Positions 24,655-43,191 of a stretch of 64,000 bases of DNA are shown in pieces. The stretch is from the IMG/VR virus record IMGVR_UViG_3300023218_000062, one strand, 5' to 3'. Every line of letters starts with the position of its first letter. The first letter of the stretch is position 1. A program made the translations under genes and the position numbers. This stretch comes from a virus. Taxonomy: Duplodnaviria > Caudoviricetes. The notes beneath the pieces were generated by a model. It was not told where the DNA came from. It saw only the letters and a program-made list of their open reading frames with translations, and did no database searches.

Positions 24655-24930
24655 ATGGTACAACTAATATACGATATAGCAAATAATCCGTATTCACCCT
24701 TCGTATTGGTATTTGGGTTAATTTTTGTAATACCTTCGATATTGAAAATAGCGATTAGTACGATACCAGAGTTGATTATGGATTATACTGGTATATTTAC
24801 ATTAATATTATTGCCATCATATATGATAGTATCATTTATATTTATTTCCCTTGCAATTATCGTAGGGCTCATGAATGCAATCATTATTATGTTTTCGTTT
24901 ATGGAAATTATGTTTAAAATTTTCGGATGA
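24655..24930 (+). CDS. membrane protein
   Basis: 2-3 hydrophobic segments. Confidence 0.55.
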   Translation: MVQLIYDIANNPYSPFVLVFGLIFVIPSILKIAISTIPELIMDYTGIFTLILLPSYMIVSFIFISLAIIVGLMNAIIIMFSFMEIMFKIFG

Positions 24931-25547
24931 TTAACTTACTTGGGAAAGTTCCTCAGAAAATTGGAGTGGCTGTATCAGGTGGAATCGATTCTATGGTTGC
25001 TCTAGATTTCTTGCTCAAGGGAAAAAGAGATATTATTGTGGTGCATGTGAATCATGGTACTGAACATTCTCCCTATGCATTAGAATTCGTAAAAGAACAA
25101 TCTATGTATAGAGGATTAGAGTTTTGTACAAATGTAGATGGTAAATATGATTTTCATGTATCGAATAATAAAGAAGAGACATGGAGAAATTTACGTTATA
25201 CATTTTTGGAAAGCTTCAATATTCCGATTGTTACTGCTCATCATTTAGATGATTGTTTGGAAACATGGTTATTTTCTACATTTAACGGAAAGCCTAAAAC
25301 AATTCAATATAACCGAGCAAATGTGATTCGGCCATTTTTGTTAACTAAAAAGCAAGCAATCGTTGACTATGCTAATACACATGAGGTAGAATATATTAAT
25401 GATCCATCGAATAATGATTGTAATTATATGCGTAATCAAATACGACACAGCATCGTCCCGGAGGTATTGAAAGTGAATCCGGGTATTCATAAAATGATAT
25501 ACAGAATGGTAAAGGATCGTTATGATAGAATTCATCGGACAGCATAG
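24927..25547 (+). CDS. tilS: TilS-like PP-loop ATPase (catalytic N-terminal domain only)
   Basis: AVSGGIDSM, VHVNHG, WRNLRYTFL, TAHHLDDCLET, IRPFL, DPSN...YMRNQIRH. Confidence 0.85.
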   Translation: MINLLGKVPQKIGVAVSGGIDSMVALDFLLKGKRDIIVVHVNHGTEHSPYALEFVKEQSMYRGLEFCTNVDGKYDFHVSNNKEETWRNLRYTFLESFNIPIVTAHHLDDCLETWLFSTFNGKPKTIQYNRANVIRPFLLTKKQAIVDYANTHEVEYINDPSNNDCNYMRNQIRHSIVPEVLKVNPGIHKMIYRMVKDRYDRIHRTA

Positions 25548-27633: not shown

Positions 27634-28056
27634 ATGAGTAAAAAAATGAGTAAAAAAATGGTAAGTCGTATTTTCAAATTTCCATATAACGAAAAAGAGT
27701 TACATCAAATAACCCTTGAATCTATGGAAAATGACATAACTGCCTTTATTAATGAAATTATGTATGCTTTCGGTATACCAGTGACATGTCAATGGGATCA
27801 CGAGGATAATGCAATTCTATATGATTTGAATACCGAAGCAAAATCATACCTGCATATCAAATATTACTTTTCATCTAATCATTGGGAAGGGCTTGGAAGA
27901 TATAATAAAGTTTTTGAATTATATTCTTTGATGGATGTTCTTGTGGCAGTATCAGAGTGGTTGCATGGAAGAGAATTCATCAATCAACAATGGCGTAATG
28001 CTTTAATTTATTATGGAATTCGTATGAAATTCGTTGACAATCTCATAAATTTTTGA
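27634..28056 (+). CDS. hypothetical protein
   Basis: 140-aa ORF, 12-bp duplication at start. Confidence 0.65.
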   Translation: MSKKMSKKMVSRIFKFPYNEKELHQITLESMENDITAFINEIMYAFGIPVTCQWDHEDNAILYDLNTEAKSYLHIKYYFSSNHWEGLGRYNKVFELYSLMDVLVAVSEWLHGREFINQQWRNALIYYGIRMKFVDNLINF

Positions 28057-28118
28057 TATATTATTTTAATCTGGAAATTGTCTTGACAAGTCAGAGAAAC
28101 ATTGTATAATGTAATTGA

Positions 28119-28407
28119 GAATATTTTGAGAAGGTGGGCTTAGAAGCAGCCATCCTTTAAAGAGTGGGACCGATGCCCCTTGCTGACGTAATGTAAATGC
28201 GTAAACGGTACCATCAATAGCGCATTGAAACCGAAACAACTTCTGAAGACCGATCATCTTCATGTTGTGTAGGGAGTTGGGTGGGGGAGGTACCGAGTTG
28301 GGACAGTAAGAACCTTGGAATTGACCGAGGCATGTCATGAGTAGGATTGGTAAAAGTCATACCCTACCATTACCATCCCTTTGGCGTGATAGCACACTCA
28401 AATATTT
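28119..28407 (+). ncRNA. 23S rRNA H43-H44 (uL11-binding domain) mimic split by a 218-nt insert
   Basis: Own TTGACA-16-TATAAT promoter (28083-28110); 41/49 identity to E. coli 23S nt 1056-1104 (recalled sequence) after removing 28166-28383; closing stem TTGAG/CTCAA. Confidence 0.8.
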
Positions 28408-28418
28408 ATTTTAGATAA

Positions 28419-28817
28419 ATGGTGAGAATATTGAAAAATATTGTATACAATGCAATTCAAACACCTGATGGGACCATTCTTGAGTCTCGTCATCGCCATG
28501 ATTATGTAGCATATACTGACCAAAATGGTTATGAATATATGGTGGATGGTGGAACAGCTTATCTTCGTAGAGGATGGACACCTGATGCTCCTGATTATAA
28601 CGAATTGTCGTTAACCATTGATGATCCTCATGGGAAAGTTCGTGAACATGTTAAATGGGGAACATATGGTCCTAATGGAGATCAACCATTAAAATTTGTG
28701 ACGATTAAAGACATGTCAACGGATCATATCAACGCATGTTTGGAGAATGTTCCTAGTATGTCTGATAAAATTCGTACTGTGATGGAAAATGAATTGGAGT
28801 ACAGAAATGAAATCTGA
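28419..28817 (+). CDS. conserved phage hypothetical protein
   Basis: NAIQTPDGTILESRHRHDY...MVDGG..YLRR motif. Confidence 0.75.
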   Translation: MVRILKNIVYNAIQTPDGTILESRHRHDYVAYTDQNGYEYMVDGGTAYLRRGWTPDAPDYNELSLTIDDPHGKVREHVKWGTYGPNGDQPLKFVTIKDMSTDHINACLENVPSMSDKIRTVMENELEYRNEI

Positions 28818-30048: not shown

Positions 30049-31067
30049 ATGAAATTATTTGAATTGAAAATGAATCCAATTAATTTAGGTTTGTGGATCA
30101 GTCCGCAAGGTAATATAATCAAGACAACAACGCACCATGCCGCCGATATCATCGAGAATCCTGAAAAGTTTGGAGTAACATTCGATTTATTAAAACCCTG
30201 TATGATAAACATGGTGAGAATTTCCAACAAGAAGGTAACGCTCGTGAAGAATTAATTAAACTGGTCCTTCAACGTGGTTGGATTAGAGTTCGTAATTATC
30301 GTAATTATTGGTCTGTCACGGTATACTCTCTGACCCCCCAAACTCGTGAAATTATCGAGAGTTGGGTTAATACTTTTGTTGAGAGTGAGATGATGGGAAA
30401 ATTTGCTGACATAAAAATCCTAGAAATTAAGTCAGATCGTTTGAAAGCAGTTGAAGCTAATGGTATACTCAAGGGCGTCTTAGAAGAAGGTGTGAATATT
30501 GATATGAGAAAATTAAATGAAGGTAAGTTCTCGGATGAACCGGACTTGGAATTGTTGAATGAAGTAAAACTATCCCGAGTATACAATCATTTTACTGGTA
30601 AACGACCAGTGGGTATCATCACTGCATTCCGGGGTGAGCGTACTGCGGAAGAAAATCTTAGAGCCAATAGAGCATTAGCATCAGAGTTAAAGAATGCTGG
30701 ATTTGGGTTCGTATGGGTTGATGGTGCTTGGGTAGAAAATACAAATACTCCCGAAGAAACACATGAGAAAGAAATTTCGATGCTGGTAATTGCTGATAAA
30801 GGCGAAGATCAAAAATTATTTGATGCCTTAAAAGACGGTGCTAGAAAATATGAACAAGAAGGTTTTGTATTCAAGGGTGTAGATGGTAAAGTCGGAGTGT
30901 ATAATGCACAAGGAAAGGAAGATATTTATTTTAATTACATTAACATGGACAAACTTTCTGACATTTATACAAAACTTCGACATGGTTCGCATAAAGGCCG
31001 AGCATTTTTCTTTGAAGGCGTCCGTGATTCAAAAGGGTTCATTGGAAAACTCTTAGAAAAGGGTTGA
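30049..31067 (+). CDS. hypothetical protein with DUF3293-like C-terminal domain, frameshift at ~30195
   Basis: TATAAATA at 30019-30026; MKLFELK leader; GIITAFRG...EENLRANRAL..ELK..G.G.V.VDG.W.E...KYEQEG. Confidence 0.7.
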
Positions 31068-34747: not shown

Positions 34748-35920
34748 CTACACCTCTATGTCCTCAACTACATCTAAAGTTGTTTCATATTCTTCCAAAT
34801 ACTTTTTAGCATTTTTCATGATAAAATTCTTGTAATCTATTTCCTTACCAGAATATAATCCCATAGCAATATTGAATTGATCCCGCTCCAGTTTTTGTTG
34901 TCCTTTTATAGCATAATCTTTACGCGCTAAGCTCTTGTGAGCTTCGTAAAAGCTATTAGATGCTTTCAAGAGCCGATTCATCATATGGGATACAAAAATC
35001 TCCATGTTTTCAATCTCACGGAGAGCTTGTTCGTCATCTTCGAACATTTGACGTAAATCATCAGACGCTTCTTCTAATACAACTGCCATCAATCTCTTAG
35101 GACTGGTTACAGAATCTTTGGCATGATGCAACGAAACATATTCATTAGTTTTTATCTTAACCATGGTTCCATCTTTTAAACGAATGACATATCCTTCAAT
35201 ACCTTTCATATCGGGAATTGAATTTACAAAATTTTCTACGGTAGAAAAATTTAACACTTCATCTAAATGATTTTTTACTAAAAAGGGGCTCAACCCATAT
35301 TCTTTCATCTCATCAAAAGTCATAAAAGAAAAATCTTCTCTGGATCTAACACCTAGAACAACTAAAGAACAATTTGTATATGGTAAAACTATACGATTTT
35401 TTGCAGAACAATATTCCATGTTCACAGTATAATTTTTGTTTTCCAGGATATTAATATGTTCATGTAAAGTTTTTCCAGTATCGGGATTTTTCATTTCACT
35501 GGCCAAACGATATGCTTCTTCGGCCATCATTGAAGTCAATGAGGTTTTAGATTTATATCTAACATTCATTCCATAATCTAGATAAGAAGATATCAAAGAA
35601 CCATCTTCCTTAGTAGCAATGTAATCAACGTTATCATTTGAAAAATCTAGATCCATGGTAAATGGGTTTTCGCCAAGATTGAAAAATTTGGGAAAAGGAA
35701 GTGAAACCAATTCGGGTTCCTTACCCAAAAGGAACATATGCCCTCGACATTCTAACGCATTTTCTCGTAAAAAATCGGTATATGAACCCAAACGATAAGA
35801 GAACACACGATAGGTTTTCCCGTCATGTGGGCATAATTGATCAACGTGGTAGAACGGAGATTCCTCGTCAGAAGACAATTCCATCAAGTTGTTATATAAG
35901 TTTTGTGTGATATTATTCAT
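34748..35920 (-). CDS. rnlA: T4 Rnl1-like RNA ligase
   Basis: LRENALECRG.MF, PFPKFFNLGE, motif I KEDGSLI, EYCS..NRIV, IEGYVI, KIKT..Y..LH. Confidence 0.92.
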   Translation of the reverse strand: MNNITQNLYNNLMELSSDEESPFYHVDQLCPHDGKTYRVFSYRLGSYTDFLRENALECRGHMFLLGKEPELVSLPFPKFFNLGENPFTMDLDFSNDNVDYIATKEDGSLISSYLDYGMNVRYKSKTSLTSMMAEEAYRLASEMKNPDTGKTLHEHINILENKNYTVNMEYCSAKNRIVLPYTNCSLVVLGVRSREDFSFMTFDEMKEYGLSPFLVKNHLDEVLNFSTVENFVNSIPDMKGIEGYVIRLKDGTMVKIKTNEYVSLHHAKDSVTSPKRLMAVVLEEASDDLRQMFEDDEQALREIENMEIFVSHMMNRLLKASNSFYEAHKSLARKDYAIKGQQKLERDQFNIAMGLYSGKEIDYKNFIMKNAKKYLEEYETTLDVVEDIEV

Positions 35921-41808: not shown

Positions 41809-43191
41809 ATGAATGATACTATCCTAATAGGAAAAGGCGACGAATCCCAAGTACATTTGCTTGGCAAGTATGCTAATCGTCATGGTCTAGTTGCTGGCGC
41901 TACAGGTACTGGCAAGACGGTAACCCTGATGATGTTGGCCGAAGGTTTTTCCCGTATGGGAGTACCGGTATTCATGGCTGACGTTAAGGGTGATATGGCA
42001 GGTTTGGCAATGCAAGGTGAGGATAATCAAAAGATTCGTGGCCGTGCTGAAAAAATTGGTCTTGATGCTTTTGACTTTTCAAGTAATCCGGTATCCTTTT
42101 GGGATTTATGGGATAAGATTGGTAATCCTATCCGAACAAGCGTAGAAAGCATCGGTGCGACATTGATGGCAAGAATGCTTGATGTTAGTGATGCTCAAGA
42201 GGGTGTACTTGATGTTGTATATCATTATGCAAGAGAACGTGGTATGCCCTTTGAGACTCTCACAGATTTTCGTAAACTGTTGAGTCATATGGCGCAGAAT
42301 CGTGAGTCTATCAGTACCGAATATGGACTAATAAGCGCCAATAGTATCGGAGTCATCCAGCGTCGATTACTCACACTGGAAAATGATGGCATTGATAATT
42401 TCTTTGGTACTCCTGCATTAGAGTTGTCTGATTTCATGCGTGAACAAAATGGCAAGGGTGTTATCAATATTCTTTCTGCTGAAAGTCTTATACTTCGGCC
42501 TAGAATGTATTCCACCTTTTTGCTTTGGTTATTGTCAGAGTTATTCGATAAGATGCCAGAAATTGGTGATGTTGACAAGCCTAGGTTGGTATTCTTTTTT
42601 GATGAAGCTCACTTGTTGTTCGATGATTGCTCGGGTGCATTGCTTCGCAGAGTTGAACAGGTAGTAAGATTGATCCGTTCCAAGGGTGTAGGCGTATACT
42701 TTTGTTCGCAGAACCCTGACGATATACCTGAGACTGTCTTAGGACAGCTTGGCAACCGTGTTCAACATGCACTAAGGGCATTCACTCCAAGAGATCAAAA
42801 AGCCGTTAGAGCGGCTGCTGAGACGTTTGTGGATAATCCTAATATCAATGTTAGTGATATTATTACTCGTTTGGGTGTAGGTGAAGCATTAACATCGATG
42901 TTGGATGACAAGGGTATTCCGCAACCAGTCCAGCGTACAATTATTTCACCGCCACAATGCCGTATCGGTTCTATCACTGATGACGAAAGGATGACTATCG
43001 TTAATAATGATTCATTACAGGAAAAATATGCAAAGTCTGAACCTGAACCGGAGCCAATAATTGAACGTGATACAAATGATTATGTGGAACCCGAACCCGA
43101 ACCCGACCCCGAACCCGAACCTGAACCTGAAAGTTTCGGTACAAGGTTCAAGAGAGAATTTTTGAATATACTCTTGTTTCGCAGAACATAA
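41809..43191 (+). CDS. YjgR/DUF853 HerA-like ATPase
   Basis: ANRHGLVAGATGTGKTVTL, VFMADVKGD, FFFDEAHLLF, VRLIRSKGVGVYFCSQNP.D, QLGNRVQHALRAFTP; (EP)n tail. Confidence 0.92.
   Translation: MNDTILIGKGDESQVHLLGKYANRHGLVAGATGTGKTVTLMMLAEGFSRMGVPVFMADVKGDMAGLAMQGEDNQKIRGRAEKIGLDAFDFSSNPVSFWDLWDKIGNPIRTSVESIGATLMARMLDVSDAQEGVLDVVYHYARERGMPFETLTDFRKLLSHMAQNRESISTEYGLISANSIGVIQRRLLTLENDGIDNFFGTPALELSDFMREQNGKGVINILSAESLILRPRMYSTFLLWLLSELFDKMPEIGDVDKPRLVFFFDEAHLLFDDCSGALLRRVEQVVRLIRSKGVGVYFCSQNPDDIPETVLGQLGNRVQHALRAFTPRDQKAVRAAAETFVDNPNINVSDIITRLGVGEALTSMLDDKGIPQPVQRTIISPPQCRIGSITDDERMTIVNNDSLQEKYAKSEPEPEPIIERDTNDYVEPEPEPDPEPEPEPESFGTRFKREFLNILLFRRT

Follow-up and report, generated by a model that had tools for sequence, protein, structure and literature searches.

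A phage-borne RNA family that reproduces the fold of the ribosomal GTPase-associated centre and may target host uL11

An RNA element that imitates the GTPase-associated centre (GAC) of 23S rRNA was identified in the window, a stretch of tRNA-rich phage DNA of 64 kb. The element occupies positions 28119-28407 within a gap of 362 nt (28057-28418) that is free of open reading frames (ORFs), and it belongs to a large phage-borne RNA family with at least 100 distinct members. Comparison of these members predicts that the ends of the element form a genuine GAC fold consisting of H43, the 1082-1086 hairpin, H44, U1060-A1088 and 1072·(1092-1099), with positions given in 23S numbering. That it is a real RNA with a GAC fold is considered very likely. 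The complete reading, according to which 28119-28407 encodes a stable and structured non-coding RNA that serves as a decoy for host uL11, is proposed tentatively and with somewhat less than even confidence; for the uL11-decoy mechanism alone confidence is much lower than for an RNA with the GAC fold.

An earlier sequence-only reading had described the locus as two rRNA-like halves, AAGGTGGGCTTAGAAGCAGCCATCCTTTAAAGAGT (28131-28165) and GCGTGATAGCACAC (28384-28397), joined across an insert of 218 nt (28166-28383). Coordinates and letters of both halves and of the insert proved exact when checked against the window sequence. The promoter that had been claimed upstream was also found, at 28083-28110, and its position places the predicted transcription start at ~28117, at the start of the closing stem. 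The element and its promoter are organized as follows:

28083-28110, + strand: sigma-70 promoter (TTGACA, 16 nt, TATAAT), 12/12 match to the consensus
28119-28130, + strand: 5' strand of the closing stem that stands in for H42, corresponding to 23S 1047-1055; the window copy has an additional bulged U
28131-28156, + strand: A1056 followed by the H43 mimic (1057-1081), whose 1067 loop has A1067 at 28142
28157-28165, + strand: junction hairpin U1082-A1086, with covariation at 1082-1086, followed by G1087, A1088, G1089 and U1090 (5' strand of H44)
28166-28379, + strand: inserted structured domain with the base stem GGGA (28166-28169)/UCCC (28376-28379)
28380-28383, + strand: unpaired linker UUUG that separates the insert stem from G1091, conserved in the family
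28384-28396, + strand: H44 hairpin and 3' strand (1091-1103); G1095 is at 28388, and A1101 at 28394 pairs with U1090
28397-28407, + strand: 3' strand of the closing stem (equivalent to 1104-1112), followed by a U-rich tract

The closing stem, noticed previously as a stem of ~10 bp in place of H42, comprises 9-10 bp in the window copy and a covarying stem of 9 bp across the family. The GC content of the element is 45.6% compared with 35% for the window, which places it in the top 3.3% among stretches of equal length. Two minus-strand ORFs (28066-28338 and 28214-28360) overlap the RNA and are unlikely to be genes. The ORF at 28419-28817, which lies 12 nt past the element and shows a weak match to DUF7695, lacks an evident promoter and ribosome-binding site, and its transcription may be read-through that starts at the promoter of the GAC-mimic RNA.

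A search for homologs of both halves in phage genomes, as proposed along with the sequence-only reading, yielded abundant homologs with variable inserts. In total ~100 distinct elements with the same split architecture were collected from viral contigs, cultured phages and bacterial or MAG contigs. Comparison of the ORF-free gap with cultured phages by blastn gave matches that cover only the 5' half, in the Pseudomonas phages UNO-G1W1 and pf16 and in Aeromonas phage 4_4572. These matches are located in unannotated spacers within tRNA arrays, and all three phages share a common layout of stem, 5' half, insert GGGAC...UCCC, UUUG, 3' half and stem complement. Xanthomonas phage XacN1 and Cronobacter phage GAP32 were confirmed as further cultured carriers by inspection, and phages XaC1, Pectobacterium CBB and Pseudomonas Milchi gave a blastn match only. 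An exact-pattern scan of the viral contigs with the 5' half found 82 loci, one of which is true 23S, while all others have the split layout. The family-specific 3' half TTTGGCGTARYAGCACAC was found at 69 loci, when one genome per prokaryotic species was scanned; at least 34 of them have the full layout and come from Clostridia, Bacteroidota, Chloroflexota, Nitrospirota, Bdellovibrionota, CPR groups and further lineages. Several elements on bacterial contigs adjoin phage genes, for example those for portal or Rad52, and the bacterial carrier contigs are (pro)phage-like and belong to many bacterial phyla; the phage carriers are large and rich in tRNAs. The copy number is 1-2 in all 28 records searched, and complete carrier genomes measure 80-440 kb. 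A close relative of the window was not present in the phage collection.

Membership of the window copy was assessed with a covariance model (R1) that was built from 24 other members and excluded the window. The model matched 28121-28407 over its full length (1-160/160) with 85.4 bits and an E value of 8e-21, and this was the only significant match in the 64 kb. The match of the window to the family is far above chance. The model matched 88 of 90 loci and separates family members (83-130 bits) from true 23S (51-59 bits). The true 23S fragments available for contrast were L070, a contig of the viral collection, and L086, a record of Paenibacillus phage Pd_22F. The latter (record 83276-84708) was rejected as a member, as it is a contiguous 23S fragment at the record end, which is host DNA or contamination. 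Several short records labelled as phage that matched were likewise true 23S fragments and not family members. In Pseudomonas phage Astolliot (L089) two tandem copies occur, at 354-680 and 690-871. The upstream copy is divergent (27.5 bits): its junction is shortened, its triple is U1072/U1092/A1099 and its insert is of class B. The downstream copy is canonical except for a changed 1067 loop, GGCCUAAAAGCAGCC. Annotated coding sequences overlap the element in UNO-G1W1 (CDS0126, 'hypothetical protein', 1571-1678 on the minus strand of L001) and likewise at the match in Milchi (H21); these are probably spurious ORF calls.

The fold of the GAC part is supported by covariation. In 88 aligned members, 93.3% of the cells at consensus pairs are paired, compared with 69.8% after shuffling, and the covariation score is 0.564 versus 0.163 for shuffled alignments, with none of 500 shuffles reaching it and slid controls at 0.124 or below. 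The closing stem shows up to six pair types per position, and pairing stops abruptly beyond it. Among 53 distinct cores, the 1058-1080 pair occurs in all four Watson-Crick types and is paired in every core, and the residues U1090 (52/53), A1095 (52/53) and A1098 (53/53) are nearly or fully constant. In an unbiased sample of 33 members, which were ascertained only by the 3' half, the pairs 1057-1081, 1064-1074 and 1062-1076 covary, as does 1082-1086 (U-A in 14, C-G in 14 and A-U in three members), and U1060 and A1088 are invariant. G1056·A1103 and G1093·A1098 are preserved as mismatches. Additional pairs predicted by RNAalifold between the UG of UUUG and C1102/A1103 were discarded, as they do not covary and the G-C pair is broken in 10 sequences.

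The most specific signal lies in positions 1072/1092/1099. Here C, C and G were found in 83 and U, U and A in 16 of 100 members, C, U and A in a single one, and no other combination. According to crystal structures of the L11-RNA complex and to work on this base triple, C1072·(C1092-G1099) is a tertiary contact within the GAC, for which U·(U-A) is the isosteric alternative found in nature. The covariation of the triple between C·C-G and U·U-A shows that selection acts on the three-dimensional rRNA fold and not on the hairpins alone. When the 5' half was scanned for the U1072 variant with the 3' half left unconstrained, every member with a recognisable 3' half was found to have U1092 and A1099. 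The state of the triple switches within three separate clusters of similar inserts and has therefore arisen more than once. Covariation of all helices together with the base triple thus upholds the original description of a phage RNA that mimics H43-H44, with a stem in place of H42 and a structured insert. The sole member with C1072 and U1092-A1099 (L034, 1102-1376) is a possible intermediate of the switch.

The resemblance to 23S rRNA was quantified against L070, which Rfam confirms as bacterial LSU rRNA of the E. coli type. Both the 41/49 identity and the exact run of 18 nt that had been reported against 23S nucleotides 1056-1104 were reproduced with this reference, the mismatches of the joined halves being located at 1056, 1058, 1061, 1080, 1089, 1090, 1095 and 1101. 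Identity rises to 45 of 49 positions when the Rfam consensus of bacterial LSU rRNA is used. The argument that compensatory changes reveal selection on the fold was weak in its first form because E. coli served as the reference: G1058-C1080 and G1089/U1090 are the ordinary bacterial consensus, from which the E. coli type deviates. Selection on the fold itself stands, and it now rests on the much stronger evidence of the family-wide covariation. The copies of gammaproteobacterial phages carry G1058-C1080 and G1089/U1090 whereas E. coli-type 23S (L070) has U-A and AA, and by this comparison the phage copies do not match the 23S of their hosts. The G at position 1095, which had also been pointed out, is real and unique to the window copy (1/53 distinct cores); it is the sole deviation of the window 3' half, GCGUGAUAGCACAC, from the family pattern GCGURRYAGCACAC with A1101.

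The element thus shares with the 23S GAC (H42-H44; the 58-nt uL11/thiostrepton domain, E. coli 1051-1108) the 45/49 identity over H43, the 1082-1086 hairpin and H44, the same secondary pairs, G1056·A1103 and G1093·A1098, U1060/A1088 and a triple with the same C·C-G and U·U-A alternatives. In contrast to the 23S GAC, it is located outside an rRNA gene, behind its own promoter or in a tRNA array, a generic 9-bp stem takes the place of H42, H44 is split after U1090 by a domain of 45-355 nt plus UUUG, and constraint on the 1067 loop is weaker. Three features are specific to the family, namely the insert, the linker UUUG and the exchange U1101A, by which A1101 pairs with U1090. A genuine 23S gene or fragment was rejected as an explanation: no LSU rRNA match occurs in the window, the flanks are a promoter and ORFs and not the adjoining 23S sequence (H41/H42, H45 onwards), H44 is interrupted, and an A is found at 1101 where 23S has U. 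Rfam searches at the gathering threshold and with E values up to 10, the latter covering 27950-28550, gave no match to any RNA family at the element.

Among known systems, the leaders of ribosomal-protein mRNAs (the L10 leader and the L1 and S15 sites) are likewise extra-ribosomal RNAs that imitate the site of a ribosomal protein. Such leaders, however, regulate in cis from positions ahead of ribosomal-protein genes, and their likeness to rRNA is only loose, whereas the element is trans-encoded, is a near-exact copy and is found in the tRNA arrays of phages, where ribosomal-protein genes are absent from its surroundings. A ribosomal-protein leader was discarded as an identity for the element, which does not lie in the 5' UTR of a ribosomal-protein operon. 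The phage tRNA arrays with RNA-repair enzymes and the pseudo-ToxI mimics are more similar in setting: the element is phage-borne, co-oriented with tRNAs and near Rnl1/Pnkp-type genes, and it plausibly follows the same logic of supplying or imitating host RNA that underlies these phage RNA counter-measures. Unlike them, it copies a domain of rRNA rather than a tRNA or an antitoxin, and a cognate defence system is not known. ROOL, GOLLD and tRNA-like Y RNAs are also structured, have unknown or chaperone-like functions and are often found in phages or prophages beside tRNA genes, but the element has no Rfam match to them, their folds are unrelated, and the present family is defined by rRNA mimicry.

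A description of the family was found neither in Rfam 15 nor in the full-text literature, and we know of no free-standing near-exact copy of an rRNA functional domain that has been described. We regard the GAC mimic as a new kind of phage RNA, the structural identity of which is firmly established. It extends what phages are known to bring along, namely tRNAs, a few ribosomal proteins and RNA-repair enzymes. The family is widespread and strongly conserved, and it is easy to test because cultured carriers exist, among them phages of Pseudomonas, Aeromonas, Xanthomonas, Cronobacter and Pectobacterium. It would also serve as a naturally occurring scaffold that presents a classic RNA tertiary fold independently of protein and tolerates an insertion in H44. 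Once the family is recognised, phage annotations that miss the element or place spurious ORFs over it would be corrected.

The genomic context of the elements was analyzed for clues to their function. ARAGORN predicted 15 tRNAs in the window, four of which lie within 2 kb of the element, all on the + strand, the nearest tRNA genes being 863 and 1064 nt away. Among 58 viral loci, 46 have tRNAs within 2 kb, and all 220 of these tRNAs are on the strand of the element; 38 of the 58 elements directly abut a tRNA. The genes of the window further include a T4 Rnl1-type RNA ligase (34751-35920, - strand), a TilS-like PP-loop ATPase (24927-25544, +), a weakly SAM-lyase-like protein (30390-31064, +) and a HerA-like ATPase (41809-43188, +). 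Together with the tRNAs, these four genes surround the GAC-mimic RNA as an island for translation maintenance or counter-defence. In other carriers a Pnkp-Rnl1 fusion (L141, 2522-4303), a CCA-adding enzyme with an HD domain (L153, 3-1097), an annotated 2'-5' RNA ligase (Xanthomonas phage XacN1; L088, 26-676) and a DUF2828/DUF7788 protein (L147, 2070-3590) are found nearby. RNA-repair and tRNA-modification neighbours are a loose and recurring, not a constant, theme. When the 1982 ORFs located up to 3 kb from 92 elements were clustered, no conserved protein partner emerged, as nothing was common to more than five loci; the two top clusters were a DNA methylase and an HNH endonuclease. No ribosomal-protein gene was found near the element, the downstream ORF encoding the protein with the weak DUF7695 match, and L11 (PF00298) was absent from 45 carrier records, 22 of which are at least 90% complete, whereas all 14 control genomes were positive.

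The sequence-only reading had proposed a decoy for uL11 or defence factors, or damping of the stringent response. If the RNA is a decoy of the ribosomal site, its partner would be provided by the host and be conserved across bacterial phyla. Host uL11 is the candidate of first choice, as for no other partner are the sequence requirements of the binding domain retained. The nucleotides and tertiary pairs that build the fold of the 58-nt uL11-binding domain are conserved in the family. L11 contacts H43, and the L10 site is helix 42 (PMC1635324). In the family, H42 as the uL10 site is replaced by a stem of variable sequence. Retention of the uL11-domain requirements, loss of the uL10 site and the lack of a phage L11 point to host uL11 as the most likely partner. 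The window copy has its own promoter, and its RNA would be transcribed early by host RNA polymerase and build up as a free-standing copy of the uL11 site of the ribosome. In most relatives, adjacency to tRNAs on the same strand suggests that the RNA would instead be released from tRNA-array transcripts by tRNA processing. It could then titrate free or exchangeable uL11 and give rise to uL11-poor ribosomes unable to activate RelA; mutants in relC (rplK) are relaxed. Alternatively, it might compete for any reader of the uL11-GAC surface. In both cases translation would be sustained while infection proceeds, in concert with the phage tRNAs and RNA-repair enzymes.

Variation in the loops bears on this proposal. 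A1067 is replaced by G in five of the 33 unbiased members, and G1068, A1069 and A1070 vary too. Together with G1095 of the window copy this suggests that the 1067 and 1095 loops, which contact factors and thiostrepton, are less constrained than in ribosomes, which would be compatible with binding of uL11 and argues against faithful binding of factors. Against the uL11 decoy stand the interruption of the 5' strand of H44 by the insert and the very high RNA levels that would be required to titrate an abundant ribosomal protein stoichiometrically. Moreover, any partner that recognises the GAC fold would account equally well for its conservation. In a broader formulation, the phages would use a dedicated RNA gene to rebuild the uL11/GAC domain as a free particle and thereby manipulate host translation, either by trapping uL11 against the RelA-dependent stringent response or by disarming an immune effector that reads or attacks the domain; to this we give slightly better than even chances. 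If uL11 or a factor that reads the GAC is bound, the RNA would represent a new viral control of translation or of the stringent response. Trapping of uL11 or disarming of an effector would, if true, constitute a new class of viral counter-measures based on rRNA mimicry.

A close rival to the uL11 decoy is protection against an enzyme that attacks the GAC. The RNA would then be a substrate-mimic decoy or inhibitor for an effector of the host or of a competitor, such as an ADP-ribosyltransferase, a nuclease or a methyltransferase, and would spare the ribosomes. Enzymes that target exactly the GAC exist: Tre23 ADP-ribosylates H44 at nucleotides 1095-1098 (PMC8661411). This is consistent with the high conservation of the H44 loop in the family (A1095 in 52/53, A1098 in 53/53 distinct cores), as well as with the position of the element among tRNAs, with RNA-repair genes near in several genomes (Rnl1 in the window, L141, L153 and XacN1), and with its resemblance to phage tRNAs and pseudo-ToxI RNAs, which blunt RNA-directed defences. 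The G1095 of the window copy, however, falls within the stretch targeted by Tre23, which is an interbacterial toxin, and a stoichiometric substrate counters a catalytic enzyme poorly unless binding inhibits it. Furthermore, no anti-phage system that targets the GAC is known to us. Protection by such a mimic is rated as rather unlikely. The family could also point to host defences aimed at the GTPase centre.

The insert suggests a different role, in which the GAC fold, perhaps bound by uL11, is a nuclease-resistant, recognisable handle and the fast-evolving insert is the functional part, be it an aptamer, a module for antisense pairing or protein binding, or another mimic of the ribosome. An insert was seen in all of the ~100 members recovered, always after U1090 and with a length of 45-355 nt, and a scan of the viral contigs for the insert-free form with A1101, using one pattern, gave no match. 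The insertion point is fixed, and so is the linker, with U in 52, U in 52, U in 50 and G in 47 of 53 distinct cores at its four positions. The base stem of 4 bp covaries, with 4, 3, 6 and 6 pair types in the same 53 cores; together with the small size of other inserts (45-85 nt), this favours the view, raised in the sequence-only reading, of an appended domain closed by GGGA...TCCC. Inserts are structured and fall into classes with conserved motifs. In the largest class (A) this is a 3' hairpin, G[G/U]C-ACC-CCG-GNRA-CGG-UAAG; the insert of the window shares a multi-helix fold with L067 and L034, in which 23 of 78 predicted pairs show compensatory change; and a sarcin-ricin-type hairpin is found in L025. 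Yet half of the inserts (50/100) are singletons by sequence, and over their range of lengths no common cargo is visible. Conservation of the GAC part almost to the letter across phyla points instead to the GAC as the business end of the molecule, and a scaffold role is regarded as unlikely. Likeness to rRNA was not detected in the inserts, as comparison of all of them with two 23S sequences by blastn-short returned only matches of 10-17 nt at chance level. A recurrent internal-loop motif, 5' GYGC(R)AAAUGC ... GUGAUGUGC 3', was observed in the inserts of L012, L036, L043, L138, L151 and others; it crosses insert classes and may be a kink-turn-like or protein-binding module.

It was further considered that the RNA is a sink for factors and directly binds a translational GTPase, RelA or the tRNA elbow. 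In 'ribosome-in-pieces' work, isolated GAC oligonucleotides can reportedly bind EF-G in vitro, and the 1067 and 1095 loops, which touch the factors, are largely conserved in the family. Factors bind naked GAC RNA with low affinity, however, and the substitutions at A1067 (G in 5/33) and at G1068, A1069 and A1070 are not expected of a faithful factor site. Rare members add a hairpin that resembles the sarcin-ricin loop. A loose pattern for such hairpins was matched by four of 100 inserts (0.77 expected) and a strict structural pattern by one, so that 1-4 of 100 inserts carry the hairpin, and the window has none. Direct factor binding is considered improbable. The sole canonical hairpin of the sarcin-ricin type, GCAU-AGUACGGGAGGAA-AUGC, lies at about nt 223 of 313 in the insert of L025, and the loose pattern adds L108, L123 and L127. 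Some family members may imitate both halves of the factor-binding site.

The close placement of elements beside co-oriented tRNAs and the U-rich tract after the closing stem of the window copy could also be explained by a cis-acting module that processes, stabilises or terminates tRNA-array transcripts and has no target in trans. Such a module would not require a near-perfect rRNA tertiary fold including the base triple. In addition, 12 of the 58 loci have no tRNA within 2 kb, and the window copy has its own promoter and lies 863 and 1064 nt from the nearest tRNA genes. We consider a cis-acting role highly improbable.

The insert had also been suggested to be group I-like, on the grounds that it follows U1090 and ends in G; both features hold (U1090 in 52/53, last base G in 47/53) and are not diagnostic alone. 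A spliced, contiguous GAC as the working molecule, or a captured rRNA fragment with its intron, can nevertheless be dismissed almost completely, since neither Intron_gpI (E values up to 10, 27950-28550) nor another ribozyme was matched, inserts of 45, 62, 76, 81 and 85 nt are well under the ~200 nt of the smallest self-splicing group I introns, the insert ends form a covarying stem with no P1 or internal guide pairing with the exon, the flanks are not rRNA, U1101A and the closing stem show that the family has long evolved independently, and the copies differ from the 23S of the hosts (G1058-C1080, G1089/U1090).

The window sequence is present only in DNA metagenome runs. Wastewater runs labelled as RNA are dominated by true 23S rRNA, which accounts for the depth of the 5' half, and contain relatives at low depth, for which these runs are probably DNA. 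A single joint 28165>28380, seen in one contig per run and with a side of 22 nt, is not taken as evidence of splicing. In L189, a long perfect hairpin (1935-1982) carries the 1067 loop of H43, of the U1072 type, as its loop and upper stem and has no H44 part; it represents either a stand-alone H43 mimic or chance.
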